Source: Krischvirus LF73P4
Length of the DNA stretch: 64,000 nt
Strand: one strand, 5' to 3'
Sequence record: OZ035795.1
Below are positions 2,927-49,703 of this stretch, one piece after another. Both the position numbers and the translations under genes were made by a program. The number at the start of each line of letters is the position of its first letter. Within the stretch, counting starts at the first letter, position 1. A model generated the notes under the pieces. The model was not told the DNA's origin. It saw only the letters and a program-made list of their open reading frames with translations, and ran no database searches.

Positions 2927-2927
2927 C

Positions 2928-11060: not shown

Positions 11061-11093
11061 ACTCCCATACCAAAACAACTAAGGAGTATCAAG

Positions 11094-11492: not shown

Positions 11493-11498
11493 TAAGGT

Positions 11499-11522: not shown

Positions 11523-11542
11523 TGTGACGTGAGGAAAGGATA

Positions 11543-13109: not shown

Positions 13110-13115
13110 TAATAA

Positions 13116-13138
13116 GCGGGGCTAGTTCCCCGCCTTTT
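13116..13138 (+). terminator. rho-independent terminator after rnlA
   Basis: GCGGGG/CCCCGC stem + TTTT. Confidence 0.6.
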
Positions 13139-13154
13139 GTCGTTGGGGGGTAAT

Positions 13155-13478
13155 ATGTCAAAGCTGATATACATTGTTATCATATCTGTATTGCTGGGGG
13201 TAGGTGGCAATATGTGGTGGGAAAATAAAAAGGAGGTAGATCGACTGAATCAGGAATTTACAGAATATAAGAAAAAGACAGATGAGAAGATGAAGATTGT
13301 AGACTCGCTGCAAAAGGAGATGTACGGAATAAGAACTAAGTTTGCAGAAGAACAAAACAAAGCAATGAAAGACGCTACACGAGGCGATGTAGTAGCACAA
13401 AAACCCAAGTTGGTAGAGAAACAGCTTAATGACTCATTTAAGGAGTTTACCGAAGAATTAAGGGAGGCTACTAAATGA
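13155..13478 (+). CDS. putative i-spanin-like protein (N-terminal TM + coiled coil)
   Basis: 107 aa; single N-terminal TM helix then charged helical region; adjacent to pseT, where T4 carries its spanin genes (pseT.3/pseT.2). Confidence 0.45.
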   Translation: MSKLIYIVIISVLLGVGGNMWWENKKEVDRLNQEFTEYKKKTDEKMKIVDSLQKEMYGIRTKFAEEQNKAMKDATRGDVVAQKPKLVEKQLNDSFKEFTEELREATK

Positions 13479-13927
13479 GCATAGAAATATTTCCTACACA
13501 AGAGCAGATAAGCAATTTTAATCTGGTTGATTATCTGTGGATAGGTGCAAGCATTATTATCCTGATGGTGTTTTCAATTTTCGTGATACACTGGATGTTT
13601 AAGAAAGCACATAAGAATTTTCAGACCGCCATAATCCATGTCTTCGCTGTGCCTATTGTATTTGCGCTTTCTTCGTGTACAATGGACCATTATTCACAGG
13701 AACCGAAATTACATCCTCCACTACCAGCACCAATAGAAAAAGTTGACATTGACCTGAAAGTTGATACAATAGACGGTAAACCTAGAGTTTCTATGTCGTG
13801 GGAGGACTCCCAAAAATTCAGAGTCTGGCTTGCGGATATTAAGAGATATACACTTGAAAGTAAGTTGATCATGTGTTATTATCGAAAAGAACTTAATGAG
13901 GAACGGTGCAAACCGAAGGAGAAATAA
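13475..13927 (+). CDS. putative o-spanin-like lipoprotein / membrane protein
   Basis: AGGGAGG ribosome-binding site, ATG overlapping upstream stop; hydrophobic segment ending in lipobox-like ALSSC, Pro-rich region; product may start at internal Met (13595). Confidence 0.4.
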   Translation: MSIEIFPTQEQISNFNLVDYLWIGASIIILMVFSIFVIHWMFKKAHKNFQTAIIHVFAVPIVFALSSCTMDHYSQEPKLHPPLPAPIEKVDIDLKVDTIDGKPRVSMSWEDSQKFRVWLADIKRYTLESKLIMCYYRKELNEERCKPKEK

Positions 13928-14805
13928 TGCCGAAATGTGAAGTGATTTTAACCGTTGGTTGTTCTGGGTCTGGTAAAACTACATGGGCGATGGAAACATG
14001 TAAACGGTTTAGTAATTATCGTAATGTGAATCGTGATGATCTTCGTCTTATGTTGTTTGGTGTTGACTCACATTTGAAATACAAGTATACTAAGGAAAAA
14101 GAAAAACTGGTGGAGTCTATTCAGAGAATGATTGCTCGTGAGACTCTATCACGCGGATTGAGTATCATTATCTCTGATACCAACCTGAAAGAAAAACATC
14201 GTGTATTCTACAAAGAACTTGCAAAAGAATTTAACGCGGTGTATACTGAACAAGTGTTCAATGAATCATTTGAGACACTAAAGAAACGTAATTTCTATCG
14301 CGGCGAGAAAGCAATTCCACTTTCTCATTTGCGCAACCAATTTTATCTGATGCAGGAATATATGGGTCAAGAAGTATACAAACCGAATACCATGCTGCCA
14401 AAGGCAGTGATCTTTGATATTGATGGAACATTAGCGGATAAGGGCGGTCGTCATCCGTTTGACTGGACAAAGGTCAAAGAAGATAAACCGCGTCCGCAAG
14501 TGATCGAAATGCTTAAACTGTATCGTGATAATGGCTATCGTATCATTACATGCTCAGGGCGTGAGGATGTTTGCGAAGAAGATACTCTGCAATGGCTGCG
14601 TGAACAAGGTATTGAACCTAGTGATCACTTTCAACGTGAAACTAATGATCGTCGTCCTGATCATGAAGTGAAGAAAGAGATTTTCTTCTCTGAAATTGCA
14701 CCGCGTTATCATGTTGTTTTGGCGGTAGATGACCGTGATCAAGTGGTTGACATGTACCGCTCAATTGGTGTAGAATGTTTTCAGGTTAACTACGGAGAAT
14801 TTTAA
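13927..14805 (+). CDS. pseT: polynucleotide 5'-kinase / 3'-phosphatase
   Basis: ATG 13927 after AAGGAG; P-loop GCSGSGKTTWA, phosphatase DxDGT (IFDIDGTLA), collinear with T4 PseT to the C-terminal GVECxQV. Confidence 0.9.
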   Translation: MPKCEVILTVGCSGSGKTTWAMETCKRFSNYRNVNRDDLRLMLFGVDSHLKYKYTKEKEKLVESIQRMIARETLSRGLSIIISDTNLKEKHRVFYKELAKEFNAVYTEQVFNESFETLKKRNFYRGEKAIPLSHLRNQFYLMQEYMGQEVYKPNTMLPKAVIFDIDGTLADKGGRHPFDWTKVKEDKPRPQVIEMLKLYRDNGYRIITCSGREDVCEEDTLQWLREQGIEPSDHFQRETNDRRPDHEVKKEIFFSEIAPRYHVVLAVDDRDQVVDMYRSIGVECFQVNYGEF

Positions 14806-15008
14806 TGTTTACCGATAAACTCAAGCAATTAGGCGAAGCACTTGCTAAACGTGGTTTTAGTGTTGATATTGAACCAGCGCCAGTTATGCCGTTTAGCGAT
14901 GAACGTCGCAGTGTATATGTCATCATGAGAAATAATCATGGTGTGAATACATTCAATGTAAAACAGTATAGCGACGGATCAGTAGAATACTTTCGCGTAT
15001 ACGGTTAA
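14805..15008 (+). CDS. hypothetical protein
   Basis: 67 aa; start overlaps pseT stop. Confidence 0.4.
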   Translation: MFTDKLKQLGEALAKRGFSVDIEPAPVMPFSDERRSVYVIMRNNHGVNTFNVKQYSDGSVEYFRVYG

Positions 15009-15029
15009 TTACTATGTGAGGATTATATT

Positions 15030-15536
15030 ATGTTGTCACAAACTTACATGCAGATCGCCTATCTGATCGCAAAGAACTCTAAATGTGTTTCGTGGAAGGT
15101 AGGCGCACTGATCGAAAAAGACGGGCGAATCATTTCTACTGGATTTAACGGAACTCCAGCAGGGCAAGTAAATTGTAGCTGTCATGCACATAAAAACGGT
15201 TGGCTGGATGATGACGGCAAAATGATCCCAGAAAAACGACCAGAGCATAGTGCATGGTCACAGAAAAACGAGATCCATGCTGAATTAAATGCTATTTTGT
15301 TTGCTGCCCGTAGCGGTGTATCGATTGAAGGCGCTAGTATGTGGTGTACTGCTTCACCGTGTCCAGATTGCGCTAAAGCAATTGCAAACAGTGGTATTAA
15401 ACATCTATACTATTGCGACACATATGATCGAAATGGTGGGCGTGATTGGGCTGATATTCTGAATAATGCAGATATTACGATCACGCGTATTCCAAAAGCA
15501 TTATTGACTGATTTGAAGGGTATTGATAATGACTGA
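15030..15536 (+). CDS. cd: dCMP deaminase
   Basis: 168 aa; cytidine/dCMP deaminase zinc motifs HAELNAI ... PCPDCAKAI. Confidence 0.85.
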   Translation: MLSQTYMQIAYLIAKNSKCVSWKVGALIEKDGRIISTGFNGTPAGQVNCSCHAHKNGWLDDDGKMIPEKRPEHSAWSQKNEIHAELNAILFAARSGVSIEGASMWCTASPCPDCAKAIANSGIKHLYYCDTYDRNGGRDWADILNNADITITRIPKALLTDLKGIDND

Positions 15537-15843
15537 ACAAGTTGATAATATCGCACTTCGTGAAGCACTAAAGAAAATGTTTTCGGTCGGTACTCACTCT
15601 TTGCAGTTTACTAAGAAAGATGGTACTGTCCGTGAGATGATCGCCACGCGAGATCCGGCACTGATGCCGTTTGAAACATACGAAAAGTGGTTAGTTCCGA
15701 ATGTTGAAAAACCGCGTAAAGAATCAGAAACATCTTTGCCAGTATATGAAATTACAGTTGAAGGTTTCCGTAGTTTTGGGCTTGATAGTCTGATTAATGT
15801 AGATGGGCTGACTCCAGCGCAGATCGTCGAAATTTATAAATAA
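15529..15843 (+). CDS. hypothetical protein
   Basis: ATG 15529 overlapping cd stop; 104 aa. Confidence 0.4.
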   Translation: MTEQVDNIALREALKKMFSVGTHSLQFTKKDGTVREMIATRDPALMPFETYEKWLVPNVEKPRKESETSLPVYEITVEGFRSFGLDSLINVDGLTPAQIVEIYK

Positions 15844-15884
15844 TTCATCATTAAACTGTATTGATTTGAAGAGGTAATAAAATT

Positions 15885-16208
15885 ATGACCGTTAAAACTC
15901 CTAAAGCACTTGGTGATTATGTAATTATCGAAGCTAAAGCAGAAAGCGCAGGGACCGAAGTAAAAAGCTCTATGGGGATCATTATTGAGCAAAAGCGCAC
16001 TATGGGTGAGATTCCGCTGGTAGGTAAGATTATTGATATTGGCGAGACGGTAGATAAAGAATTGCTGGGTAAAACTGTTTTACTGCCACATGGAAAGATG
16101 AATAAAGTTCCTCATCCAGACGTTATTAACGGCGTTAAGAAGGAAGAAGAGATCGACCTGAAATGGACTGTAACGCACAAACAGAATATTGTGGTAGTTT
16201 ACGGTTAA
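15885..16208 (+). CDS. 31: co-chaperonin gp31 (GroES-like)
   Basis: 107 aa; pattern shared with T4 gp31 (GDYVIIE, SxGIIIExKR, GEIP, VPHP). Confidence 0.75.
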   Translation: MTVKTPKALGDYVIIEAKAESAGTEVKSSMGIIIEQKRTMGEIPLVGKIIDIGETVDKELLGKTVLLPHGKMNKVPHPDVINGVKKEEEIDLKWTVTHKQNIVVVYG

Positions 16209-16219
16209 TGATTTTAAAC

Positions 16220-16248
16220 GGCGGGAAATAATCCCGCCTATATTTTGG
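16220..16248 (+). terminator. rho-independent terminator after gene 31
   Basis: GGCGGGA/TCCCGCC stem + T-rich tail. Confidence 0.55.
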
Positions 16249-16444
16249 CTATATGATTTTGTAAGTTATTGATTATTAAGGAATTTTATTATGAAAACTA
16301 TGAATGTAAACATCCACGAAATCCATACCGAAGTATTCACCGAAGAAGACCAGTTTGGTGTATGGGTAAATCCTCATTCGATTACTATCGATATTCCTAA
16401 TGACGATTATGATCCGTTCTCTCTGATTAGCGAGATTAGTTTCA

Positions 16445-16924
16445 ATGACTTCTGAAATTGATATCTATGCGGGTGGACCTTATCCATCGGGTGAATTGAG
16501 CAATTTCAATAAAAGACCATTCCGTCTATTTGGTTGCGATATTAACAGCACAGAAGGATTTTTACAGGGGCTAAGATTTAAGAACCCTCAGAGACAAAGA
16601 GAAATCTTTTTGATGCACGGTGGCAAAGCAAAAAGAACCGGAAGAACTGAAAAGATTGAGAATCACATGTTATATTTTCAGGGTCGCCCGATTCATCGAA
16701 TGAGTGAGCATTATTACAGACTGGTACATCTGGCATTTGTTACGATGGCACGGAATAACCCAGAATTTTGTAAAGCATTACTCGCTACCGGAAATAAGAA
16801 ATTGCGTCATAGCATAGGTGGAACTGATCCGTTAAAGACTATATTGACTGAATCGGAATTTTGTAGTATCCTCAATGATATTCGTGAACGTTTAACAAAA
16901 CGAGGTGAAAATGTCAATTCTTAA
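16445..16924 (+). CDS. NADAR-family (YbiA/DUF1768-like) protein
   Basis: 159 aa; ELSNF, TEGFLQGLRF, GGKAKRTGR, LLATGNKKLRHSIGG match NADAR-domain conserved positions. Confidence 0.55.
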   Translation: MTSEIDIYAGGPYPSGELSNFNKRPFRLFGCDINSTEGFLQGLRFKNPQRQREIFLMHGGKAKRTGRTEKIENHMLYFQGRPIHRMSEHYYRLVHLAFVTMARNNPEFCKALLATGNKKLRHSIGGTDPLKTILTESEFCSILNDIRERLTKRGENVNS

Positions 16925-18407
16925 TATCATTAATCAGCTTGCAGCGACCGACAAAACATCGCTGAAAGAAAAGATCCTGAAAGAATCCGCAAGCAATGAA
17001 ACTCTGAAAGAATGCTTTTATCTGGCATATTGCAAACAGGTTACGTTTGGCGTAAAGAAATACGATAAACCATCTCGCTATTCGTCTGTATTGTCTTTAT
17101 CCGGTGCATTGCAGGTCTTTAAAAATAAACTTGCCACGCGTCAAGTAACTGGTAACGCAGCATTACAGCTAGTTACCGATACTCTGACTTGCTTGTCAGA
17201 AGATGATGCTAAAGTTGCAATGATGGTCCTGAATCGTGATCTGGAATGTGGTTGTTCCGCTACTACTGCAAACAAGGTATGGAAGAAACTGATCCCCCAG
17301 CAGCCGTGCCACCTTGCATCGTCATGTTCTGATAAGACTATTGCTAATATCAAGTATCCGGCGTATGCACAACTTAAAAGCGATGGCGCTCGTGGTATGG
17401 CTGATATTGACGGGGAAACATTAGCAATCTATACCCGCTCAGGTAATACCTATCAAGGACTTGATGATTTGTTTGCGGTTTTAGAGCGTCTACGAGGCCG
17501 TGGAATTGTTCTAGATGGCGAATTGGTATATATGCCTACCCTTTCGCAAACACCAGCGCAGAACTTCGTTGAAAGCGTTTATGATGGTACTCTGTCATGG
17601 ATATTTGAAGAAGAGGAAATGCCATTAACGCCAGTAGCGGAAGCAGTGAAAGAATCCGTTGTTGCAGATCGTCAGACCGGAAATGGTATCCTCAACAAAT
17701 CACTTAAAGGAACTATTCCAAAAGAAGAAGCCCAATGTATTGTTTATACTGTCTGGGATGTTATCGACCGTGATGTGTATTACGGAAATGAGAAAGCAAC
17801 GAAGCAATATAAAGATCGATTCGAAGAACTAAAACAGATTGTTGAAGAACTTAACGATCCTCGTGTTCAGATAATCGAAAACACTGTAGTTAACAATATA
17901 GATGAAGCTCGCGAAGTATATCATCGCTATGTAAACATGGGCTTAGAAGGTATTATCCTTAAAAATTTACATGGTGTATTTGAAGATCGCCGTAGTAAAG
18001 ATCAGGTTAAATTTAAAGAAGTGATTGACTTCGACGCGGAAATTGTTGATGTATATCCGCATAGTAAAGACCCCAATAAGGTAGGCGGTTTTACTGTCCG
18101 TAGTGCGTGCGGACGAATGATGACTAACACCGGATCGGGATTGACCGACACCACAACCGAAAAAGGCGATGATGGTATTGAACGTGTGATTCCGTTTGAC
18201 CGTCGAAATGAACTTGACCGAGAAATGTTATGGGCTGACCGTCATAACCTGATTGGAAAAGTTATTGAGATGACATGCAACGGGTATATCCGCAGCAAAT
18301 CACGTAAAGAAGATGAACCGGAGTTCTCTTTATTTCTCCCAATCATCAAACGTATTCGCTACGACAAGACCACTGCAAATACAGTAAAAGAGGTATTCGA
18401 TGTGTGA
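16911..18407 (+). CDS. 30: ATP-dependent DNA ligase
   Basis: ATG 16911; adenylation motif KSDGAR (KxDG), LDGELVY, EGIILKN, C-terminal FLPIxxRxRxDKTxANT as in T4 gp30. Confidence 0.9.
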   Translation: MSILNIINQLAATDKTSLKEKILKESASNETLKECFYLAYCKQVTFGVKKYDKPSRYSSVLSLSGALQVFKNKLATRQVTGNAALQLVTDTLTCLSEDDAKVAMMVLNRDLECGCSATTANKVWKKLIPQQPCHLASSCSDKTIANIKYPAYAQLKSDGARGMADIDGETLAIYTRSGNTYQGLDDLFAVLERLRGRGIVLDGELVYMPTLSQTPAQNFVESVYDGTLSWIFEEEEMPLTPVAEAVKESVVADRQTGNGILNKSLKGTIPKEEAQCIVYTVWDVIDRDVYYGNEKATKQYKDRFEELKQIVEELNDPRVQIIENTVVNNIDEAREVYHRYVNMGLEGIILKNLHGVFEDRRSKDQVKFKEVIDFDAEIVDVYPHSKDPNKVGGFTVRSACGRMMTNTGSGLTDTTTEKGDDGIERVIPFDRRNELDREMLWADRHNLIGKVIEMTCNGYIRSKSRKEDEPEFSLFLPIIKRIRYDKTTANTVKEVFDV

Positions 18408-18873
18408 TAATGAAGGGGCGAAAGCCCCTAAACCTAAAAAATTGTCAAAGAAAGAGCAACGCCAGATCCTGAAAATGAAATATGGTGGACGTTGTGCCTA
18501 TTGTGGCGAGGAACTAGGGGATCGCTGGCACGCAGACCACATCAAACCAGTATTGCGACGCTCAAAGGTAGTCTATGATGAAAATGGACGAATTGCCCGT
18601 AATGATGATGGATCGTGGAAGTATAAGGTTGTAGGAATGCATAAACCGGAACATGATATACTTGATAACATGAATCCGGCGTGTGTGCAATGCAATCTTT
18701 ATAAAAGCTGTATGGGCTTAGAATACTGGCGTAAGTGTATACGCGAGAACTTCCAGAAGTACATTCAGCGCAATATGGGATTGCGAGCGGCTAAACGCTT
18801 TGGCTTGCTGTCAATTCATGACCAGCCAGTAGAATTTTATTTCGAAAAGTACGAGCGCGAAAATAAGGAGTAA
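18400..18873 (+). CDS. HNH endonuclease
   Basis: 157 aa; CAYCGE...HADHIKP...CVQCN (HNH core with zinc-binding cysteines); start overlaps ligase stop. Confidence 0.7.
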   Translation: MCDNEGAKAPKPKKLSKKEQRQILKMKYGGRCAYCGEELGDRWHADHIKPVLRRSKVVYDENGRIARNDDGSWKYKVVGMHKPEHDILDNMNPACVQCNLYKSCMGLEYWRKCIRENFQKYIQRNMGLRAAKRFGLLSIHDQPVEFYFEKYERENKE

Positions 18874-18880
18874 CCATTAT

Positions 18881-19225
18881 ATGTTCTTTCTGTTTATCTA
18901 TATCCTTTTTGTTTTCCTGGTAGGCATGTACGCAAGCCGTTTAAACCGTAGCGTTATCGGTTATGTTATCCTATCATTGATCATTAGCCCGTTGATCACC
19001 TTTATCATTTTGTTGGTGTTGGGTCCAACGAAATCATATGAACAGGAACAAGCAGACAAGCTAAAAGCCGAGATGGTAGAGAAACAATTTGTTCAACTGT
19101 ATCTAGAAAACCCAGATTTTGAGGAAGTTTCCACCCTTAAGCGAATGTATGACGATCTAACACGATACCCTAACTATCGAAATGTGCTGGCTATGGAAGA
19201 AGCCATTAAGCTCATGAAAAAATAA
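18881..19225 (+). CDS. hypothetical membrane protein
   Basis: 114 aa; two N-terminal hydrophobic helices. Confidence 0.45.
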   Translation: MFFLFIYILFVFLVGMYASRLNRSVIGYVILSLIISPLITFIILLVLGPTKSYEQEQADKLKAEMVEKQFVQLYLENPDFEEVSTLKRMYDDLTRYPNYRNVLAMEEAIKLMKK

Positions 19226-19238
19226 TTCAAAAAAGTTG

Positions 19239-19267
19239 TTGACAGGGGATCACGTATCCCCTATACT
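19239..19267 (+). promoter_or_regulatory. PeSL-type promoter (hairpin GGGGATCACGTATCCCC in spacer)
   Basis: TTGACA 19239-19244, 17-nt hairpin spacer, TATACT 19262-19267, conserved leader + AAGGAGAATCAAAATG. Confidence 0.65.
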
Positions 19268-19309
19268 ACACACATCAAAACGAAACACACTTTCTTAAGG
19301 AGAATCAAA

Positions 19310-19588
19310 ATGAGCAACCTGTCTTTCGCTAAAGTAGAAATTTCTAAAACTCGCGGTGGCTTTAAAATCAAAACTTCCAATATCACTTCCTGCCGTGGTT
19401 GCGTCCGGTTTGCGTTCGACTTGGCAGCGAAGCTGGGTATTAAAACCTTTACCGTTGAGAGCGGATCTAACTGGACCACTCTGATTGTTACTGCCGCTTG
19501 GATTAATGGCGAGTATGTGGAAAAAGCATACTTTGACATTTTCTATGACTATGAAGAAAAATGCTTTTATGCACTGCAAGACATGTAA
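19310..19588 (+). CDS. hypothetical protein
   Basis: 92 aa behind PeSL promoter. Confidence 0.5.
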   Translation: MSNLSFAKVEISKTRGGFKIKTSNITSCRGCVRFAFDLAAKLGIKTFTVESGSNWTTLIVTAAWINGEYVEKAYFDIFYDYEEKCFYALQDM

Positions 19589-22660: not shown

Positions 22661-23134
22661 ATGTTACTGACTGCTAAGAGTGCTAAAGAGTACAAACAAG
22701 AACTATTCGAAAAACAGGGGGGCATTTGCCCCCTTTGTCAATTGCCCCTTTTTGAGGATATGAGCAAAAACCATCTTGACCACGACCACGATCTAGATGG
22801 GAAAGGTCAAGGCCGTGTAAGGGGATTGCTTCATTCGTGTTGCAACCGCCTAGAAGGATCGTTGACCGGAGACTTTAAGCGGTTTGGAGTTGGTGCTTTA
22901 GGTGCTGATTTCGTTGTTTGGGCTACAAACTATGTTAATTACATCAAAGGAGACTACACCAACAATCATTTACATCCTCAATATGCTGTTGATAAAGTAA
23001 AACGATTTTCACGCTTGACACGCGCGGAGATGGTTGCTATTATGGACGCAGAAGGTTTCGATTACTGCGACGCTGATACACGAGAAGAAATCACGAAGAA
23101 GTATAAGAAACAATTTATACAAAGATTAAGATAG
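22661..23134 (+). CDS. 49: recombination endonuclease VII
   Basis: ATG 22661 after GGAGGGTG; collinear with T4 endo VII (CxLCQ, NHLDHDH, GxVRGLL, CNxxEG, SRLxxxEM). Confidence 0.85.
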   Translation: MLLTAKSAKEYKQELFEKQGGICPLCQLPLFEDMSKNHLDHDHDLDGKGQGRVRGLLHSCCNRLEGSLTGDFKRFGVGALGADFVVWATNYVNYIKGDYTNNHLHPQYAVDKVKRFSRLTRAEMVAIMDAEGFDYCDADTREEITKKYKKQFIQRLR

Positions 23135-23137
23135 TGG

Positions 23138-23166
23138 TTGACAATAAGAAATGGGAGTAGTAAAAT
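23138..23166 (+). promoter_or_regulatory. PeSL-type promoter
   Basis: TTGACA 23138-23143, palindrome GGGAGTAGTAAAATACTCCC, TAAAAT -10. Confidence 0.65.
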
Positions 23167-23197
23167 ACTCCCATCTAATCAAGAAGGAGAATCAACA

Positions 23198-23470
23198 ATG
23201 CGTAAGATGTTTAAAGCTGGTGTGGCCTATGTTTTTAAATCTGAGCAAGCACGTAAAGACTTCTTAGAGGACGACTACGAAGGTCTGAAAGATACCTACG
23301 AAGCAATCAAGAATGGATTTACTGTTCTTAAAGTGTCACCTATTGGTTATGTAAGTGAAATCTCGGTTGATGGGAAAACCTACACCGCTAAAGACTTTGA
23401 TCCGCGTTGGGAATTTATGCTGCTTCCATGTGACCGCATTCTGTTTCGTGCTGTTCAATTAGTGAAATGA
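23198..23470 (+). CDS. paralogue-family protein, one module
   Basis: 90 aa; shares the GFxVLKV...G.V.EI.VDGxxYTAxDF module with following ORFs. Confidence 0.55.
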   Translation: MRKMFKAGVAYVFKSEQARKDFLEDDYEGLKDTYEAIKNGFTVLKVSPIGYVSEISVDGKTYTAKDFDPRWEFMLLPCDRILFRAVQLVK

Positions 23471-23484
23471 TAGAGGATTATATT

Positions 23485-24051
23485 ATGGTACAGAAAACGT
23501 ATAAATTGTATCCGGCTAAGTCTTCAAATGATGCTGTTTTTGAACGAGGTCGTTATTACACTTTCCGTAATGCTGAGTCCGCAGTGGAATTTGTTAAACG
23601 CTATCCACAACATAACAAATTCCTGCATGATGTGCTTCGCAATGGCTTTAAAGTTCTGACGGTTAATGTTATGGGTAAAGTGTATTTGGTAGAAACTCAT
23701 GATTATGAGGGCGCGTCAATAATGATTGATGCAAGCGAGCGAAAATACTTTAAACGCATCACTAAAAAGCAGTTTGAAGAAATGAAACCAGTTAAGAAAG
23801 AAGAATCTCTGGAAGACCTGATTAACTTGTTTGCGAAGTCTTCTTTGGTGTCATTGACGCTGGAAGATTTTAGCTTTGATAATCAGCTATACTTTAAAAA
23901 TGCAGATGACTTGAAAGATTTTCTGATTGAGAATAAACCTAAGCTAGAAACCTATATCAAAGGTGAGCTTAAGCGCATGGAACATCAAGCAAAATATAGC
24001 GCCGATAAAGTAGCTGAACTGAAAGAGATCCAAAAGTCATTTAACGCTTGA
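23485..24051 (+). CDS. paralogue-family protein, one module + helical tail
   Basis: ATG after GAGGATTATATT; module YYTFRN...GFKVLTV...ERKYFKRITKKQFEEM. Confidence 0.55.
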   Translation: MVQKTYKLYPAKSSNDAVFERGRYYTFRNAESAVEFVKRYPQHNKFLHDVLRNGFKVLTVNVMGKVYLVETHDYEGASIMIDASERKYFKRITKKQFEEMKPVKKEESLEDLINLFAKSSLVSLTLEDFSFDNQLYFKNADDLKDFLIENKPKLETYIKGELKRMEHQAKYSADKVAELKEIQKSFNA

Positions 24052-24076
24052 CATGATGAAACGGGAGTAGTAAGAT
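24048..24076 (+). promoter_or_regulatory. PeSL-type promoter
   Basis: TTGACA 24048-24053, palindrome GGGAGTAGTAAGATACTCCC, TAAGAT -10. Confidence 0.65.
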
Positions 24077-24107
24077 ACTCCCATCTAAACAACGAGAGGA
24101 TTATATT

Positions 24108-25286
24108 ATGGCTAAATTCTTTGAAGGTCATTACTATGCATTCCGTGAAGGCGGTAAAGATGAGTTTCTAGACTTTTCTCGCTATTCAATTATTCTGACC
24201 GATGCTTCGCGCCGTGGTCATATTCGGGTTGCTGAAATCGTAGAAAAGGGCTTTAAAGTATTAGAAAAAGATGACCACGGTCATGTTATTACTATTGAAG
24301 CTGGAGATGTAGTTTATTCCGCTAATGATATTGTTGATTATTGGGCTACTATGATTATGAACAATGAGCGCAAATACTTTAAACGTATCTCAAAAGAGGC
24401 ATACGAAGCGATGAACAAGAAAGAGGATGCAATGCCGACTTACTTTGAAAAAGGTAAATGTTATTCGTTTACCCCAGAAGGTTTGCAAGAATTTAAGCGA
24501 TTCTGGGGAGAGCATGACCCAGAGCACAAAGAAGCTATGAAACTTGTTGATTTTGTCGAATATGGCTTTTTAGTTGAAGAAGAATTGCACGGATCAGCTA
24601 CCATGATCACCGCGAAAGGTGAAACTGTTAAGGCAGATCGTTTTTGTGACCAATGGAATTGCTTGTTTGACGGTAGCGAATTTGAATACTTCGCGGAAAT
24701 CACGCGAGTTGAATATGTCCGTATGCAGGAGCGTGGTCAGAGATTTAAAGTAGGCGAACGCTACAAACCAAATCCACATAATTTGCCTCATTGGTTTAAC
24801 ACTGAAACCGTATCCAGTCATGTTATTGAAATTGTTCAAAAGCTGGAACATGGATTTAAGGTAACTAAAGTAGATTCTTTCGGAAGTGTTGACGCGGTTG
24901 AAATTGATGGTGTAGAATATACACCGAAATCTTTCGGGCTTTGCTGGTATCACTTGATCAGCAATGATGAACGTTATAACTTTGTTGAACTGCCATCTGA
25001 ACCGGAAGAAGCACTAGAAGATCATGATCATCTGTCTGAACTGGTTAAGCTGTTTGGTGATCTGCCGGATGGTGTGGGTGTTGCGGTAATGGGTGAAGGT
25101 ACTGTTATTCGCAACCTGAAAGACCTTAAAAAGTTCTTGATCGACATGCTTCCTAAACTCGATGAGAATCTAGATACAGATATTCAGAATCGCAAAGAAA
25201 TTGTTAAAGAGACTGAAAAAGAGATCGAAGAGATTCGAGCAATTCGCCAGAAGGTGAAAGCAGTAAAGAAAAAAGTTAGTGTTTGA
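24108..25286 (+). CDS. paralogue-family protein, about four modules + helical tail
   Basis: 392 aa with internal repeats (YYAFRE.../CYSFTPE.../RYKPNP...), each ending in an (E/D)RKYF / EFEYF / ERYNF motif. Confidence 0.6.
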   Translation: MAKFFEGHYYAFREGGKDEFLDFSRYSIILTDASRRGHIRVAEIVEKGFKVLEKDDHGHVITIEAGDVVYSANDIVDYWATMIMNNERKYFKRISKEAYEAMNKKEDAMPTYFEKGKCYSFTPEGLQEFKRFWGEHDPEHKEAMKLVDFVEYGFLVEEELHGSATMITAKGETVKADRFCDQWNCLFDGSEFEYFAEITRVEYVRMQERGQRFKVGERYKPNPHNLPHWFNTETVSSHVIEIVQKLEHGFKVTKVDSFGSVDAVEIDGVEYTPKSFGLCWYHLISNDERYNFVELPSEPEEALEDHDHLSELVKLFGDLPDGVGVAVMGEGTVIRNLKDLKKFLIDMLPKLDENLDTDIQNRKEIVKETEKEIEEIRAIRQKVKAVKKKVSV

Positions 25287-25310
25287 CATGCGAAGGGAGT
25301 ATGCTATAAT
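25283..25310 (+). promoter_or_regulatory. PeSL-type promoter
   Basis: TTGACA 25283-25288, palindrome GGGAGTATGCTATAATACTCCC containing TATAAT. Confidence 0.65.
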
Positions 25311-25340
25311 ACTCCCACTTAACAACGAGAGGATTATATT

Positions 25341-25835
25341 ATGTGGGTACAAGATGTTTGGTATACTGTAACTAAAGAAAACCTTGACGCATTCAGCGAC
25401 CAATCTTGCGCTAATAGCTCAATTGCTGGTATACTTACTGATGTGTTTGGTGGTGTTGATAAAATTCGTTTTAAAGTTGTTGTTAGTTCGATGGGGCATG
25501 TGCAAGATCTTTACACCGAAGATAAAGACCTTGATCTTGAACTTCGTCTTCGTATTGAGAATGCAAGTCTAGGTTATTGGTTTGAAGATAACGAGTATGA
25601 ATACTTCACACCAGCAATTAAAGTTTTTGCAACTAAACTGGAAGCTGTACTAAATCTCCGACCAATTAATGTTGACGGTTACATTATCAAAAATATTCAG
25701 GAGTGGGATTCATATCTAGATCAGATTATCCGAAATAGTAAGCAGGAAGCCGCTAATAAGAAGCGACAAGAGATCAAACAACTGAAAGCTGAACTGGAAG
25801 CGGCGGAAAAAGAATTAGCAGAACTGGTAAAATAA
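25341..25835 (+). CDS. hypothetical protein (possible divergent family member, coiled-coil tail)
   Basis: 164 aa; EYEYFTPAIK motif and C-terminal KQLKAELEAAEKELAEL. Confidence 0.5.
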   Translation: MWVQDVWYTVTKENLDAFSDQSCANSSIAGILTDVFGGVDKIRFKVVVSSMGHVQDLYTEDKDLDLELRLRIENASLGYWFEDNEYEYFTPAIKVFATKLEAVLNLRPINVDGYIIKNIQEWDSYLDQIIRNSKQEAANKKRQEIKQLKAELEAAEKELAELVK

Positions 25836-25844
25836 CTATCAACG

Positions 25845-25867
25845 AGCGGGAGAAATCCCGCTTTTTC
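25845..25867 (+). terminator. rho-independent terminator
   Basis: AGCGGGA-GAAA-TCCCGCT hairpin + TTTTT. Confidence 0.6.
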
Positions 25868-25879
25868 ATAGGTGATACA

Positions 25880-27742
25880 ATGGAAAAACTAATCAAAGAC
25901 ATTACAGAGATCGCAACGGGTAAAGAAAACGAAGTAAGCAAAGAGAACGCGAACAAAGACGCGCGAACATTCCCGACACGTCGAGATCTGATTGCTGGTG
26001 CTGTGTCTAAACAGATTGCTAAAACCGTGTTACCTGAGCACATCTATAAAGCGCATGTAGACGGTGACATTCATTATCATGATATGGATTATGCACCCGC
26101 TATGCCGTTTACTAACTGCTGTCTTGTTAATCTCAAAGACATGTTAGAGAATGGTTTTAAATTGGGTAGCGCACAAATCGAAAGTCCGAAATCAATCGGC
26201 GTTGCTTGTGCTGTAACCGCTCAAATTATCGCACAGGTGGCAAGTCATCAATATGGCGGGACCACAATTGCAAACATCGATCAGGTTTTAGCGCCATACG
26301 TTGAGAAAACATATCATAAACACCTTGCTGATGCCGAAACCTACGGAATCAAAGCGGATACTCTCTATGCACAAGAGAAGACAGAAAAAGAAACGCTAGA
26401 CGGGTATCAAGCGTTGGAATATGAAATCAACACTTTGTTCTCCACCAACGGTCAAACACCTTTTGTGACTTTAACATTTGGTATGGGTACTAGCTGGGAA
26501 GAAAAACTGATTCAGAAAGCGATCCTGAACGTTCGAACTAAAGGTTTAGGTAAAGATGGTATCACTCCGGTGTTTCCTAAGCTGGTGATGTTCTTAGAAG
26601 AAGGATTAAACCTTAAACCGGAAGATCCGAACTACGACATTAAGCAACTTGCATTGGAATGTTCTAGTAAGCGTCTTTACCCTGATTATATCTCTGCGAA
26701 GAATAACCGTAGTATCACCGGATCTAGTGTTCCGGTTAGCCCGATGGGTTGTCGTAGCTTCCTGGGTGTGTGGCATAATGAGAAAGGCGAAGAAGTATTA
26801 GACGGACGTAATAACTTAGGTGTTGTGACTCTGAATCTTCCGCGTATTGCCCTTATTGCCGCTCGTCGTGCTGGTAAAGCGTCTGTAATGCGCAGAATTG
26901 AGCTATTCGAACAAGAGCTAGCTAATCGTATGCCTATTTGCTTTGATGCGCTCATGAGTCGCGTAGACGCTTTAAAAGGGGCTAAAGCCAATGTTGCTCC
27001 GGTGCTGTATACAGAAGGTGCATTTTTCCGTATTCATCAAAACGATGAAATTTTGGAAGTGCTGAAAGATGGTCGCGCTAGTATCTCTCTTGGATATATT
27101 GGTTTACATGAGGTATTGAGCGTCCTGTTTGGTGTTCATCCGTTTGATTCGGAAGATGCGCAGCGATACGGTAAACATATTCTTAAGATCTTGCGTCATT
27201 ATACTGAAAAATGGAAGGACGAAACCGGACTTGGGTTTAGTCTTTACGGTACTCCAGCCGAGAGCCTTTGCTATCGATTTAATCGACTGGACCGAGAGCA
27301 ATTTGGTATTGTTAAGGGTGCTACCGATAAAGACTGGTACACCAACTCATTCCACCTTGACGTAGACCGGAAAGTCACACCGTTTGAGAAAATCGACTTT
27401 GAGAAAGATTATCACTGGCTGGCGTCCGGTGGCATGATCTCTTATGTTGAGTTCCCAGACATGAAAAACAACCTGAAAGGTCTTGAAACTGTAGTAGACT
27501 ATGCAATGGATAAATTGCACTACTTCGGTGTTAATACTCCTTCTGATGTATGTCATGTATGCGGATCTAATAAGGAAATGAGAGCGACCGAGTCTGGTTT
27601 TGTTTGCCCTGATTGCGGCAATGACAATCTGGAAAAGATGAATGTTATCCGTCGCGTTAGTGGATATCTTGGATCTGTTGATCTGCGTCCATTTAACCAC
27701 GGGAAACACTCCGAGATGGTAAACCGCGTTAAGCACATGTAA
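25880..27742 (+). CDS. nrdD: anaerobic ribonucleotide reductase, intron-less
   Basis: 620 aa; class III RNR features incl. C-terminal zinc ribbon CHVCG...CPDCG and glycyl-radical motif RRVSGYLG. Confidence 0.9.
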   Translation: MEKLIKDITEIATGKENEVSKENANKDARTFPTRRDLIAGAVSKQIAKTVLPEHIYKAHVDGDIHYHDMDYAPAMPFTNCCLVNLKDMLENGFKLGSAQIESPKSIGVACAVTAQIIAQVASHQYGGTTIANIDQVLAPYVEKTYHKHLADAETYGIKADTLYAQEKTEKETLDGYQALEYEINTLFSTNGQTPFVTLTFGMGTSWEEKLIQKAILNVRTKGLGKDGITPVFPKLVMFLEEGLNLKPEDPNYDIKQLALECSSKRLYPDYISAKNNRSITGSSVPVSPMGCRSFLGVWHNEKGEEVLDGRNNLGVVTLNLPRIALIAARRAGKASVMRRIELFEQELANRMPICFDALMSRVDALKGAKANVAPVLYTEGAFFRIHQNDEILEVLKDGRASISLGYIGLHEVLSVLFGVHPFDSEDAQRYGKHILKILRHYTEKWKDETGLGFSLYGTPAESLCYRFNRLDREQFGIVKGATDKDWYTNSFHLDVDRKVTPFEKIDFEKDYHWLASGGMISYVEFPDMKNNLKGLETVVDYAMDKLHYFGVNTPSDVCHVCGSNKEMRATESGFVCPDCGNDNLEKMNVIRRVSGYLGSVDLRPFNHGKHSEMVNRVKHM

Positions 27743-27813: not shown

Positions 27814-27842
27814 GCTCACATCGAAAACAACGAGAGGACAAC

Positions 27843-28385
27843 ATGATGATGATGTTTTGTGTACTGAGCAAAGAAGTTAAACTTCGTAAACTGGAAATTG
27901 GCGATGGTGTTGTTGTTAAAATGCACGCTAGCACATTGGCTAGTTTTAATTTAAAGGAAAGTTTTTTTATTAGAGGAACGGTGGTTAATATCTGCTGGAG
28001 TCAAGGCGAAGGAATCCGTAGCTTTTGCGTAATTGACGATGATAATAACCTGTATGTGATTCGCTATCATAATAATTCTGTATTGGTCTATACCGACAAT
28101 TCACGAGAATTATATACTCTTGAATTTGTTAAGCGTACTGATTGCGACCGATTTGTTCGTGCTTATGAAGAAGATGGCTGTTTTGCGACTGAAACAGAAA
28201 CAAATGAATATGTTCCTATGGAAGTAGGGGCAGAAATTAAACACAAGATCACGGATCGTATTTTTAAGGTTGTGGCGGTTGCTCATACTCAATTTGTAGC
28301 GCAAGCGCCGGATGAAGAATTTATTATCTACAATATTGGTAATGCAAGTTCTCATTTTCATAATGTACTATATCGCGACCTTTGA
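27843..28385 (+). CDS. hypothetical protein
   Basis: 180 aa; no recognised motif. Confidence 0.5.
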   Translation: MMMMFCVLSKEVKLRKLEIGDGVVVKMHASTLASFNLKESFFIRGTVVNICWSQGEGIRSFCVIDDDNNLYVIRYHNNSVLVYTDNSRELYTLEFVKRTDCDRFVRAYEEDGCFATETETNEYVPMEVGAEIKHKITDRIFKVVAVAHTQFVAQAPDEEFIIYNIGNASSHFHNVLYRDL

Positions 28386-28402: not shown

Positions 28403-28930
28403 ATGAAATCATTAAACCGTAAGCGTAAAGCACAACGACACAAAGAACGAGCTAAAAAGATTGCTATTGAACTGGTTGAGCGTGAGGATAGCTATTTGTC
28501 TACGGGTCGTTTGTATACATTCCATGCATTGATTGATGGTAAGCTAGTGTTGCATAATCATGATTGTTTGGCACTGTTTCACGAGATCGAACCAATCCAT
28601 CGTGAATGGGATGACAACAAAGCAAAAGGACAATATTTCCTTACTTGTTCGTGTGGTCATGCTGGATGTGCTGGATATTGGGAACCTGTTACTATCCGTG
28701 AGAAAAATGATACCATTCAATGGGTCGCCCGTACCCGCGATGGTTATGATAAAGGTGCTGATGGTACTGGCGATAACGTAGTTTACTTTAATCGTGATTG
28801 GTATTATATGGCGCGATGTATGATCCTGTTTTATCTTGACTCGATGCCGTATGAATATTTCAGTTTCCAGAATGGGACCGAACTGACAGGGAAGGAATGG
28901 TCTGACTACATTCGAAAAAATTTAAAATAA
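28403..28930 (+). CDS. hypothetical protein (basic N-terminus, CSCGHAGCAG)
   Basis: ATG 28403 after GTGAGGTGAAT; 175 aa. Confidence 0.5.
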   Translation: MKSLNRKRKAQRHKERAKKIAIELVEREDSYLSTGRLYTFHALIDGKLVLHNHDCLALFHEIEPIHREWDDNKAKGQYFLTCSCGHAGCAGYWEPVTIREKNDTIQWVARTRDGYDKGADGTGDNVVYFNRDWYYMARCMILFYLDSMPYEYFSFQNGTELTGKEWSDYIRKNLK

Positions 28931-29158: not shown

Positions 29159-29651
29159 TACATACGGAAAACTACGCTATGCCGATATTAAAGATTGTGA
29201 TATGGTTAACGGTGAGGGAGTGAGAGTCTCCCTTTACGTTACCGGATGTTCACACGCATGTGATGGTTGCTTTAATGCTAGCCTACTCAATCCTAAGAAC
29301 GGGGAACCATTCACCGATGATACAATGGGATTGATTCTGGATCTGCTTAGACCTGATTTTATTCAGGGGCTAACATTCTTAGGTGGCGATCCACTGTATA
29401 AACGCAATTTAAAGGGTGTACAGCGGATCATCGATGAAGTAAAATCATGGATGCCAAATAAAGATATTTGGCTATGGTCCGGTTATACCCTTGACCAATT
29501 GAATGATGAGCAAAGAAAAATCGTAGAATCAGTTGACATGTTCATCGATGGGCGTTATATTAAAGATATGCCAACGAAGAAGCCGTGGCGGGGGTCTGAC
29601 AATCAAGTACAATACAAGATTGTTAATAGTATTCCAGTAAAAATTATTTGA
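29148..29651 (+). CDS. nrdG: anaerobic RNR activating enzyme (radical SAM)
   Basis: CSHACDGC (CxxxCxxC) cluster, GLTFLGGDPLY, DIWLWSGY, KKPWRGSDNQ as in T4 NrdG. Confidence 0.85.
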   Translation: MSSDTYGKLRYADIKDCDMVNGEGVRVSLYVTGCSHACDGCFNASLLNPKNGEPFTDDTMGLILDLLRPDFIQGLTFLGGDPLYKRNLKGVQRIIDEVKSWMPNKDIWLWSGYTLDQLNDEQRKIVESVDMFIDGRYIKDMPTKKPWRGSDNQVQYKIVNSIPVKII

Positions 29652-29661: not shown

Positions 29662-30150
29662 ATGAAATGGGAATTGGGTAAGATGTACACTCTTGATGGT
29701 GATGAGAAGAAAGCAGAATTTACCAAATCTGAACTGTCAATCAACCGTCAAGTTGCTGAGTTTCTTGATGGACGTCCTTTTACAGTCGAGGTTATGAGTA
29801 ATGAGGGTCATGTTCTTGAAATCTCGTTAAGTGATGGTAAATGTATTTCTGTTCGAGACACTCCAATTGGTGCGCACGGTGCATGGTTTTGGGCTGGTGA
29901 ACGTCGATTCTTTAAAGAAGTTAAAGAACCAGATCTAACTTTAGAACGTCTGGGTCTGCTTATGGAAGCCTACGACATTCAGTTAATCGATAAGACGGGG
30001 TTACAACATAGTATTGCCAAAATTACTACCCTAGAAGGTATTAAGAGCGTTCTAAATGGTATGCCTAGCCGGATTGGTGCTATCCGCGAATACAAGCAAA
30101 CGCGAGACCGTATGATCCAATTAGAATCACGTATCAAAAATGAGAGATAA
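29662..30150 (+). CDS. MKWE-family paralogue 1
   Basis: ATG 29662; MKWELGKMYT...RPFTVEV...GERRFFKEVKE module + helical tail. Confidence 0.55.
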   Translation: MKWELGKMYTLDGDEKKAEFTKSELSINRQVAEFLDGRPFTVEVMSNEGHVLEISLSDGKCISVRDTPIGAHGAWFWAGERRFFKEVKEPDLTLERLGLLMEAYDIQLIDKTGLQHSIAKITTLEGIKSVLNGMPSRIGAIREYKQTRDRMIQLESRIKNER

Positions 30151-30154
30151 TATT

Positions 30155-30640
30155 ATGAAATGGGAAGAAGGTAAGACCTATGCGTTGGTTGGCGAATACG
30201 AAAAGCGTATTTTGCGTGATTGTTGGAGTTACGAACAAAGACCTAATATTGATGGTATGTTTACATATCTAGATAAACCATTTACTGTCGCTACGGTAGA
30301 CCGTTGGGGTAATGTGCGTTCAATCTATAATCACGAAGGGGATTATATTAGTTCTATCGATATTGGTGATAATATATGGTTTTCCGATGGTGACCGAGCG
30401 TGCTTCAAAGAAGTTTTATTACCTGGTCATGAATATGATCTAATAGACCTTCTCAAATTGGCGATGGATAATTATAAAATCCGCTTTGAATGCAAATCAC
30501 ATGCGGCTATCGGTGCTAACGCCTTGCGTCATATCTCCAGTTTTGAAGAGTTGAAAGATTTTCTTGACAAAATGCCGGAAAGGGTGCAAGCTATACAGGA
30601 AGCAGAGAAAGCATTAAACGAACTTGATAAAATCGGTTAA
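30155..30640 (+). CDS. MKWE-family paralogue 2
   Basis: MKWEEGKTYA...KPFTVATV...GDRACFKEVLL module + helical tail. Confidence 0.55.
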   Translation: MKWEEGKTYALVGEYEKRILRDCWSYEQRPNIDGMFTYLDKPFTVATVDRWGNVRSIYNHEGDYISSIDIGDNIWFSDGDRACFKEVLLPGHEYDLIDLLKLAMDNYKIRFECKSHAAIGANALRHISSFEELKDFLDKMPERVQAIQEAEKALNELDKIG

Positions 30641-30652
30641 GGGGAATATATT

Positions 30653-31477
30653 ATGAAATGGGAAATTGGTAAAACTTACACTTGGAAAGATGAAAACGCT
30701 AAAACTGAGTTTATTACTAACGGAGAAGGTGTTCTTTCTCCACTTAACAGCGATATTAGTGCATCTATTGGTGACAAGCCATTTACCATCATCGAGATCG
30801 ATGGCAACGGTTGGATTAATGCAATAGAGCTAGACGGTGTTTATCATACGGCGAAAACTGCTACAGGAAAAGACATTTGGACTGCAACATATTTCTTTAG
30901 TCCATTCGATAGAAAATTCTTTCGTGAAGTTGAAGAAGTTCCCCAGAAATGGGAAGTTGGTAAAACTTATACTTGGAAAGATGTGAATGCTATGACAGAC
31001 TTCTGCCATTATGCTGAAAACGTATCTAACCTTAATTATGTTATTGCACGAGCAATAAATTATAGACCTTTTACTGTTAAAAATGTTAGTCCATGTGGGC
31101 AAATTGATGTAATTGAAATTGATGGTAAAGACCATACTCTAATGAGCGCAACCGAAGATAGAGACCATAAAGGAACTAGCTGGTTTATTGATTCTGATAG
31201 AAAATTCTTTCGTGAAGTAGAAGAATTGGAAGTTATAACCACTGATTCTAAAATCGTTGGACAGTTGAAACGTCTGTTTAGTAGTCGTTACGGCCTGACA
31301 ATGGTTAAATTTGGCGAAGCAAATGAAGGTAAAACCTTTGAACGTTTCGATGATTTCATCGCAGCACTTGACAAGATGGACGAAATAATGCAAGATCGCC
31401 AGAAGATTAAAGACCTTCAAGAAGACATTAAACGTCGTGAAGTTGAATTTTTGATTGGTAAAGAGCGAGGATGGTAA
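30653..31477 (+). CDS. MKWE-family paralogue 3 (internal duplication, two modules)
   Basis: MKWEIGKTYTWKD...FDRKFFREVEEV then QKWEVGKTYTWKD...SDRKFFREVEELE; near-identical DNA repeats at 30657/30948 and 30908/31198. Confidence 0.6.
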   Translation: MKWEIGKTYTWKDENAKTEFITNGEGVLSPLNSDISASIGDKPFTIIEIDGNGWINAIELDGVYHTAKTATGKDIWTATYFFSPFDRKFFREVEEVPQKWEVGKTYTWKDVNAMTDFCHYAENVSNLNYVIARAINYRPFTVKNVSPCGQIDVIEIDGKDHTLMSATEDRDHKGTSWFIDSDRKFFREVEELEVITTDSKIVGQLKRLFSSRYGLTMVKFGEANEGKTFERFDDFIAALDKMDEIMQDRQKIKDLQEDIKRREVEFLIGKERGW

Positions 31478-31478
31478 T

Positions 31479-31958
31479 ATGTTTGTTGTTGGTATGACCT
31501 ATCAGTGGAAAAACGATCGAGCGCGGAAAGCCTTTGCAACCAGTGTTGCAAATGATGCAATAGCAGACTTTATCGGTGACCGTACATTTAAAGTTATCGC
31601 TTTTGAAAAAATTGCGTCAGATATCGAATATGTTTCTGCGATTGAAATTGATGGAAAAACATACACCTGTCGAGATGTTGATGATGTACGGGAATACGCG
31701 CACAACTGGTTTTTGCAATCAGAAGAACGTTATTTTAAAGTGGTGTCGTCAGAACTGACTACTGATGCAATGTTGGAACAATTTTTCAACAACTACGAAG
31801 TTTCTGTACGTCGCTATGGCGAAGAAGAAGTGTTTAAAATCGATGATTACAATCAGTTTAAACGAGTATTCGCCACTAAGTTGCAGCGTGACTTTGAACG
31901 TGACCAACGGATCAAGGAACTGGAAGAAGAATTGGAAAGATTAAAGGCTGAGAAATGA
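31479..31958 (+). CDS. MKWE-family paralogue 4 (divergent)
   Basis: MFVVGMTYQWKND...EERYFKVV module, C-terminal coiled coil RIKELEEELERLKAEK. Confidence 0.5.
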   Translation: MFVVGMTYQWKNDRARKAFATSVANDAIADFIGDRTFKVIAFEKIASDIEYVSAIEIDGKTYTCRDVDDVREYAHNWFLQSEERYFKVVSSELTTDAMLEQFFNNYEVSVRRYGEEEVFKIDDYNQFKRVFATKLQRDFERDQRIKELEEELERLKAEK

Positions 31959-49067: not shown

Positions 49068-49703
49068 ATGATCGCTAATGCTTTACCGCCAAAATGGATC
49101 GTAAGTCGCTTTTATACTCTCAAGGAAGGTAACGCACCTGATGGTCGTCCGATCCGAGATCTGTTTCTGGAGATGACTACAGCCGAAGCACAGTTTTATA
49201 ATGATCTGACAGACGATAAGCCATTTCTCGTAAATTCGGTGGACCTCGATGGCAATGTCACATCAATCATCACACATGGTGGGGGAGTGAAAAATATTAC
49301 TTCTCTGCGTGATCACGGTTGGGAAATTGCTTGTGTATTTCCTGCGGATGTACGCGGATTCTTTGATGAGGTATCTGATATTAAAGTAAATGCACTGGAA
49401 CCATATGACGAGATCCCACCACTGAAAGAAGAAAAAGAGTTGACACCGGAAGATGTAGATAGTACACTACACCCCGACCTATTTAAGAAGATTAGCGGTT
49501 TATGGACTGTTACCCTGTATCCAACCGCATTAGGTCTAGAATTGGGTATGCCAACTTATTCTGATATTGATAATTGGACTAAGCATATTGATAAAGATGT
49601 TGAAAAACAGCGAAATAATGCTAAAATGCAACTTAAAGAGAAACGCAAAGATCTTGAACGACAACTGAAAGAAACAAAACGTTTGCTTTCTACATTCGCT
49701 TGA
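49068..49703 (+). CDS. hypothetical protein
   Basis: 211 aa; C-terminal charged coiled-coil. Confidence 0.45.
   Translation: MIANALPPKWIVSRFYTLKEGNAPDGRPIRDLFLEMTTAEAQFYNDLTDDKPFLVNSVDLDGNVTSIITHGGGVKNITSLRDHGWEIACVFPADVRGFFDEVSDIKVNALEPYDEIPPLKEEKELTPEDVDSTLHPDLFKKISGLWTVTLYPTALGLELGMPTYSDIDNWTKHIDKDVEKQRNNAKMQLKEKRKDLERQLKETKRLLSTFA

Follow-up and report, generated by a model that had tools for sequence, protein, structure and literature searches.

The DNA considered here is a window of 64,000 nucleotides from Krischvirus LF73P4 (sequence record OZ035795.1), in which a family of genes built from one repeated protein module is grouped around the nrd genes. One cluster, genes A to D, is placed between gene 49 (endonuclease VII) and nrdD, and another, the MKWE genes E to H, between nrdG and nrdH, giving 11 modules in eight genes over the 8.76 kb between gene 49 and nrdH; a twelfth module lies in gene I, the dc2 gene of phage RB49, directly downstream of the gene 41 helicase. 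An initial annotation, made from the letters of the same sequence, had listed four open reading frames (ORFs) at 23198-23470, 23485-24051, 24108-25286 and 25341-25835, all of which are present as listed. It had also extended the module to the MKWE genes at 29662-31958, with at least ten copies in about 8.5 kb; the module does recur there, in E, F, G (two modules) and H, and the full count is slightly above that estimate. Over positions 23100-25900 the window shows 99.9% identity with Escherichia phage FL15 and 93-96% with RB49, Phi1, JSE and about 50 other Krischvirus records, and the source phage is an RB49-like coliphage (Krischvirus, Straboviridae). The genes are as follows.

23198..23470, + strand: gene A, 90 amino acids (aa), one module without a C-terminal domain; matches the module profile at 1.7e-30, and also phrog_16115 and phrog_622
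23485..24051, + strand: gene B, 188 aa; a 16-residue lead, then a module at residues 17-100, followed by an alpha-beta-beta-alpha unit and, at 151-187, a long helix
24108..25286, + strand: gene C, 392 aa; modules at 24108-24398, 24429-24722 and 24732-25022, then a C-terminal domain at 25023-25283 with a terminal long helix
25341..25835, + strand: gene D, 164 aa; a divergent module at residues 1-95, then a C-terminal helical region; cross-matches phrog_3710
29662..30150, + strand: gene E, 162 aa; module and C-terminal domain; phrog_5347 at 2e-44
30155..30640, + strand: gene F, 161 aa; module and C-terminal domain, from the ORF, the module profile and the PHROG scan
30653..31477, + strand: gene G, 274 aa; modules at 30653-30940 and 30941-31237, then a C-terminal domain
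31479..31958, + strand: gene H, 159 aa; module and C-terminal domain; module profile match
49068..49703, + strand: gene I, annotated in RB49 as dc2, 211 aa; a module at residues of about 9-105, a C-terminal domain and a long helix

Gene B starts 14 nt past A, and both a promoter scan and reading of the sequence show it to be without a promoter of its own; genes E to H are likewise packed, with gaps of 1-12 nt. The two modules of gene G (G1 and G2) are 47-49% identical to one another. Gene C had been credited with about four modules, but the profile matches it three times, at 1e-28 to 1e-29 each (residues of about 1-97, 108-205 and 209-305), and profile and AlphaFold2 model agree that the remainder is a C-terminal domain distinct from the module.

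A repeated module and its family

We cut eleven candidate modules from the eight ORFs and aligned all pairs by the Smith-Waterman method, scoring each against 200 shuffles. Within the MKWE group z-scores reach 41 (G1-G2), and between the clusters they run from 7 to 15, for instance 15.1 for A-H, 12.3 for A-G2, 10.7 for A-G1, 10.0 for B-G2 and 9.2 for B-E. The initial annotation had proposed both the shared module and this all-against-all comparison, naming alignments in the range of shuffled sequences as the result that would speak against it; the z-scores are far above that range, so the objection fails. The motifs that it quoted are also present in the modules. The module of D, which had been put forward as a possible member, is weak in pairwise comparisons (z<4), though a profile from which D was left out still finds it, along the whole module, at E=6e-5 in a set of 438 six-frame segments, and its score is equalled by 0/2000 shuffles of D. 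The twelfth module, in dc2, is found at E=1e-6 with a profile that excludes dc2, and again 0/2000 shuffles reach its score. A six-frame scan of the complete RB49 genome recovers these twelve modules, in nine genes, and adds none, the best additional segments being weak (E 0.013 and 0.16). Y10, F44 and F90 do not vary across the modules, and F21 and G53 hardly do; conservation across paralogs is confined to hydrophobic core residues, a pattern which fits a binding scaffold rather than an enzyme.

Though the initial annotation found no function recognisable from the sequence, the profile matches identify the module as the N-terminal domain of the T4 GoF/Frd.2/MotB.1 family of early proteins. A profile made from the window modules alone matches GoF residues 4-92 at 4.7e-11, Frd.2 residues 2-89 at 1.6e-8 and MotB.1 residues 7-84 at 1.9e-3, E-values that derive from scans of nine and five hand-picked T4 proteins. 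Genes B, C and G match the PHROG families named goF 'mRNA metabolism modulator' (8944, 13003 and 2980), with B matching phrog_8944 at 1.8e-98, and the scans also reach the unnamed families 622, 5347 and 3710. The T4 family itself was published in 2025 (Kim et al., PMC12152347), in a paper that makes no mention of RB49, Krischvirus, paralog expansion or multi-module proteins. In existing records C carries the name 'frd.2' in GenBank, from the RB49 annotation, and both B and C are 'goF' in RefSeq, so part of the homology had been recorded before; the entries for A, D, E-H and dc2 give a hypothetical protein or a gene name alone. Scans against Pfam, NCBIfam and PADLOC gave noise only, with a null Pfam result for all eight proteins, and a module-profile search of the sequences in the Protein Data Bank (PDB) found nothing below E=0.45.

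A HMMER scan of 1.84 billion representative proteins at E<=1e-3 yields just 101 clusters. Seven of these are proteins of 524-1721 residues with 4-10 partial matches; the two of them that we read, P0151 and P0154, are Ig-like repeat proteins matched by part of the profile only, and were discounted. Two-module proteins recur among the clusters and there is one further three-module protein, P0148, which is encoded on a 71-kb metagenomic contig of a distant T4-like phage within a row of family genes, at least four side by side and several of them matched by the profile two or three times (SRR14300940_297, L014 5900-11600). This run lies upstream of a gene for a GIY-YIG/endonuclease-dimerisation protein and of a split nrdD, interrupted by a homing-endonuclease-like gene, so arrays beside nrdD are not confined to Krischvirus. 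Searching with C alone retrieved Krischvirus orthologs only, at 85% identity or more, and our first word-indexed homolog search returned mostly T4-type GoF orthologs.

Module fold and C-terminal domain

The AlphaFold2 model of B, made from a 35-row alignment, has a mean predicted local distance difference test score (pLDDT) of 86, and of 93-98 in the barrel. The barrel runs in the order strand 1, two helices, strands 2-4, short helix, strand 5, with strands at residues 24-27, 55-60, 66-70, 77-81 and 89-92 and helices at 30-39 and 41-51 between strands 1 and 2. In the model of C the barrel is repeated three times, followed by an alpha-beta-beta-alpha unit and a helix at 337-391; its predicted template modelling score (pTM) is 0.34, and therefore no arrangement of the modules relative to each other is predicted. 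Linkers of low pLDDT fall at residues 100-130 of B and 298-306 of C.

The predicted module fold is an SH3-like barrel, and the models give no support to the term 'LSm-like', the label under which the GoF family was published (Hfq/LSm; PMC12152347), beyond the general barrel shape. The module does share with Hfq and LSm proteins a small, bent, five-stranded antiparallel barrel; however, its helices in the B model are placed after strand 1 and before strand 2 rather than N-terminally, and no Hfq or Sm protein is among the top structural matches. The models are closest to FeoA. The FeoA and DtxR/IdeR C-terminal SH3-like domains (CATH 2.30.30.90) are 9-14% identical in sequence to the module, a resemblance of fold only, and they differ from it in that the module lacks a Pfam FeoA match and metal-binding histidines and carries the two-helix insert after strand 1. 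Other structural neighbours include the PcrA/UvrD Tudor domain, CarD and the EF-P KOW domains, some of which bind RNA polymerase. A Foldseek search of the B model against predicted viral structures (BFVD) gave 36 matches at E<=1e-3, all to phage proteins; those with names come mostly from T4-like phages of several host genera and include a protein of VR7 named GoF and ECD7 Dc2.

What had been described as a helical charged tail is helical and charged in its last part, but in the models of B and C the module or modules are followed by a folded alpha-beta-beta-alpha unit, and then by a charged helix of 35-55 residues. The tails of D to I have a similar layout in the alignment, with weak sequence similarity to B and C. 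Compared with 1000 shuffles each, a profile of the B/C-type C-terminal domain finds D, F and I (0/1000), G (6/1000) and H (17/1000), and does not reach E. A layout of N-terminal domain, flexible linker and C-terminal domain that varies between subfamilies is thus found in the window proteins, and in the T4 family, too, the C-terminal domains vary, GoF and MotB.1 giving bands consistent with dimers in denaturing gel electrophoresis (SDS-PAGE; PMC12152347). We also considered homology between the Krischvirus and GoF C-terminal domains and rejected it, the hhalign probability being 0.1%.

Promoter cassettes and variation among Krischvirus phages

The promoter-early stem-loop (PeSL) cassettes known from RB49 and phi1 (Arbiol et al. 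2010, PMC2839356) have counterparts in the A-D cluster, where the following features were identified together with a candidate promoter for the second cluster.

23138..23185, + strand: PeSL before A; -35 TTGACA and a stem-loop GGGAGTA-N6-TACTCCC with the -10 TAAAAT in its loop; promoter scan 11/12; -13.8 kcal/mol, z -4.6
24048..24095, + strand: PeSL before C, from promoter scan, sequence reading and motif search; -11.9 kcal/mol
25283..25330, + strand: PeSL before D; a perfect TTGACA-16-TATAAT; promoter scan 12/12; -13.3 kcal/mol
25844..25866, + strand: terminator-like hairpin with a T-run, closing the A-D block ahead of nrdD; -16.7 kcal/mol, z -4.7
29533..29561, + strand: sigma-70-like promoter match within the 3' end of nrdG; scan 11/12; a consensus match only

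All three PeSLs have the same layout, TTGACA followed by a GGGAGTA...TACTCCC stem-loop that holds the -10 inside its loop, and a motif search finds four stem-loops of this type in the window compared to none expected. The fourth lies at 11047-11066, 12 kb upstream of the array. The earlier suggestion that each gene of the island has its own PeSL holds for A, C and D and not for B; reading the window sequence revealed no PeSL before E to H either, and the match at 29533..29561 is the sole strong candidate promoter for that block. Additionally, a 13-nt leader with a ribosome-binding site, AACAACGAGAGGA, is identical at 24088-24100, 25321-25333 and 27826-27838, ahead of C, of D and of the ORF that follows nrdD; with one mismatch or less it occurs four times compared to 0.08 expected, and lengthens the shared sequence open to recombination beyond the PeSL itself.

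We compared the region from gene 49 to nrdH across eight Krischvirus loci. Five loci have 11 modules, AV108 and E26 have 10 and KFS-EC has 8, the last being without A, B and E. In KFS-EC the spacer from gene 49 to C combines parts of the PeSLs before A and C, joined inside the stem-loop, which accounts for the loss of A and B by recombination within that element, a mechanism already described for RB49 and phi1 (PMC2839356). In AV108 gene G consists of G2 alone, with the junction in the shared GKTYTWKD start, and in E26 it consists of G1 alone, with the junction in the shared DRKFFREVEE end. The figures below give mean nucleotide identity, synonymous divergence (dS) and the ratio of nonsynonymous to synonymous change (omega) over the same region.

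Genes 49, nrdD, nrdG and nrdH: mean nucleotide identity 0.98-0.99, dS 0.05-0.08, omega 0.03-0.07
Modules of E, F, G2 and H: mean nucleotide identity 0.77-0.81, dS 0.65-0.73, omega 0.25-0.47
Module of D: mean nucleotide identity 0.88, dS 0.39, omega 0.31
C-terminal domains of E, F, G and H: mean nucleotide identity 0.92-0.97, dS 0.11-0.39, omega 0.08-0.11

The modules of D, E, F, G2 and H thus diverge much more than either the C-terminal domains that follow them or the neighbouring genes, and with copy number ranging from 8 to 11 the description of these paralogous proteins as a diversifying family is borne out. Variant module alleles are 40-67% identical in amino acids to the window allele at the same position (77% for a third class at H). 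Classic positive selection is not supported, as omega stays at 0.25-0.47 in modules where dS is about ten times that of the flanking genes, and neither is gene conversion from paralogs of the same genome, the variant alleles being no closer to any other module of the window. We read the module divergence as exchange of old, diverged alleles by recombination, combined with weaker constraint. The array changes by three routes, recombination between PeSLs, recombination at module ends and replacement of module alleles: the first takes out whole gene cassettes, the second, acting between conserved module-end motifs, alters the number of modules within a gene, and the third exchanges module alleles while the C-terminal domain stays constant. 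The array is kept in all 58 Krischvirus records.

Several further observations concern the same region. The two ORFs between nrdD and nrdG (27843-28385 and 28403-28930), which correspond to phrog_14838 and phrog_8242, families with no function assigned, are also hypervariable among Krischvirus phages, with a minimum nucleotide identity of 0.62-0.65 compared to 0.97-0.98 in the neighbouring nrd genes; neither matches the module profile. The FL15 counterpart of gene F (L007 8580-9060) is annotated as two overlapping short ORFs, with a partial module of 56 residues detected, which suggests a frameshift, a pseudogene or a sequencing error. No known Krischvirus genome is collinear with the window as a whole: positions 1-19313 correspond to RB49 142853 down to 123217, and 19229-64000 to RB49 43041 down to 1 and then the genome end, so that about 80 kb, including all structural genes, is missing. 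The 85-bp overlap of these blocks (19229-19313) is itself a PeSL, and the junction is found unbroken in 0/58 phage records; it is either a product of PeSL-to-PeSL recombination or an assembly join at the repeat.

Possible functions and relation to known systems

Taken together, the array represents a known but poorly understood family of phage proteins that has expanded in this lineage, with a variant architecture. The function that we favour, and consider probable though well short of settled, is that the island is a PeSL-punctuated array of early genes encoding GoF/Frd.2/MotB.1 paralogs that act on the fate of mRNA. The proteins would be made early, from sigma-70-type promoters, with the long helix driving formation of dimers or oligomers and the barrel providing the surface for binding and specificity. 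Their action would be post-transcriptional, as the genetics of T4 goF suggest, and their targets RNA or, more probably, host proteins that handle RNA, the latter because most modules are acidic; the two- and three-module proteins would be multivalent forms. In T4, goF mutants were selected on rho mutant hosts, and the half-life of an RNA with the gene 41 leader is lengthened by GoF(D25Y), and not by wild-type GoF or MotB.1 (PMC12152347). At the equivalent of D25, C1 and C2 carry F, G2 carries Y and B carries R, and K or R stands in six modules where the second suppressor mutation, G84R, falls; both positions come out the same with two alignment methods. The F, Y and R residues at the D25 position may thus offer a lead to an effect on mRNA.

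Several points weigh against this function. Ten of the twelve modules are acidic, with isoelectric points (pI) of 4.3-5.3; C1 is mildly acidic at 6.1, and only A (7.8) and B (9.4) are not acidic, so general RNA binding is not favoured. Oligomerisation through the long helix is a prediction, the C-terminal homology between the clusters is weak by sequence and not significant for E, and the promoters are consensus matches rather than mapped transcription starts. Additionally, the mRNA effect known for the GoF family is that of the mutant GoF(D25Y) only.

A quite different possibility, which we regard as doubtful but worth keeping in mind, is a role of the proteins in counter-defence or host range. 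The target of each barrel would be a host protein that varies, for example a defence component or a toxin RNase, the alleles and copy numbers would reflect an arms race, and the effects on T4 mRNA would be secondary. Module alleles of only 40-67% identity in genomes otherwise 98-99% identical, next to conserved C-terminal domains, are what one would look for in this case, as are the presence and absence of genes among close relatives and their position within PeSL-rich, plastic regions (PMC2839356). Mostly acidic modules would suit protein binding or mimicry, and T4 mutants in goF, in frd.2 and in motB.1 grow normally (PMC12152347), making these members dispensable in laboratory hosts. However, omega stays below 1, and there was no meaningful PADLOC match, though PADLOC models defence proteins and not inhibitors. 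The retention of the array in every Krischvirus record suggests a general role, and in a CRISPR interference (CRISPRi) screen in a standard host frd.2 scored as a fitness gene, the only one of T4 with no known function (PMC11879866).

It is very unlikely that the proteins are true RNA chaperones of the Hfq/LSm type, acting in rings in which the multi-module proteins serve as covalently linked segments, for instance with a dimer of C supplying six barrels. The five-stranded barrel, and the sum of three modules and a possibly dimerising helix, would be compatible with such rings, but the placement of the helices and the mostly acidic modules are not what is expected of them, the C model, a monomer model, has no confident packing of its modules, and Kim et al. 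obtained no confident multimer models (PMC12152347). Least probable of all is that an SH3/KOW/Tudor-like barrel modulates transcription termination by docking on Rho, NusG partners or RNA polymerase, the original proposal for GoF under the name ComC-alpha, since although the rho mutant origin of the goF suppressors and the polymerase-binding proteins among the predicted structural neighbours would agree with this, GoF(D25Y) acted post-transcriptionally, through a longer RNA half-life.

A more speculative reading, to which we give rather little weight, is that the array is a toolkit of interchangeable modules. Each barrel would have its own partner, a host RNA-handling or defence protein or an RNA, the constant C-terminal domain would oligomerise, and the phages would shuffle alleles and module number to track their hosts. 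As G2, C1 and B carry residues of the kind that make T4 GoF an RNA stabiliser, they may show natively an activity that was missed in GoF.

What is new here is how far the family has expanded, the existence of two- and three-module proteins, the shared C-terminal domain ending in a long helix, the recombination-driven change in module number and alleles, with its junctions visible, and the apparent presence, judged by alignment, of GoF gain-of-function residues in natural paralogs. GoF is a genetic puzzle worked on in T4 since the 1970s, whose family was recognised only in 2025, and the RB49-like phages provide a natural series for it, with twelve modules, proteins of one, two and three modules and diverged alleles at the same position. 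In addition, the Krischvirus array shows clearly how accessory genes of phages can exchange alleles at the level of single domains. Should it prove to have no bearing on RNA stability, binding or host range, it would be just one more lineage-specific enlargement of a known family of dispensable early genes.

Compared with the PeSL cassettes of RB49 and phi1, those of the window likewise combine a consensus sigma-70 promoter and a stem-loop in the spacers before A, C and D. They differ in that the stem-loop sits between the -35 and the -10, with the -10 in its loop, and in that the cassettes hold one paralog family rather than unrelated ORFans.

The closest relatives remain the T4 proteins. T4 GoF (ComC-alpha, 141 aa) has in common with the window proteins the N-terminal barrel domain of about 90 residues and the order of module, linker and C-terminal domain. 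It is also the product of an early gene of a T4-like phage, and the window genes would probably be early too, with strong sigma-70-type promoter matches before A, C and D; the sites of the GoF suppressors, D25 and G84, have aligned counterparts in the window modules. However, GoF is a one-module protein whose C-terminal domain is short and of beta-alpha type, and the T4 goF position is without a gene in the window phage, whose copies lie around the nrd genes and after gene 41. In the window (47605-49703) dc2 follows gene 41, whose mRNA level T4 GoF(D25Y) alters, which may be coincidence. T4 Frd.2 and MotB.1 share the same N-terminal domain, but are single-module proteins with other C-terminal domains. 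T4 has three genes of this family, whereas Krischvirus has nine genes with twelve modules.

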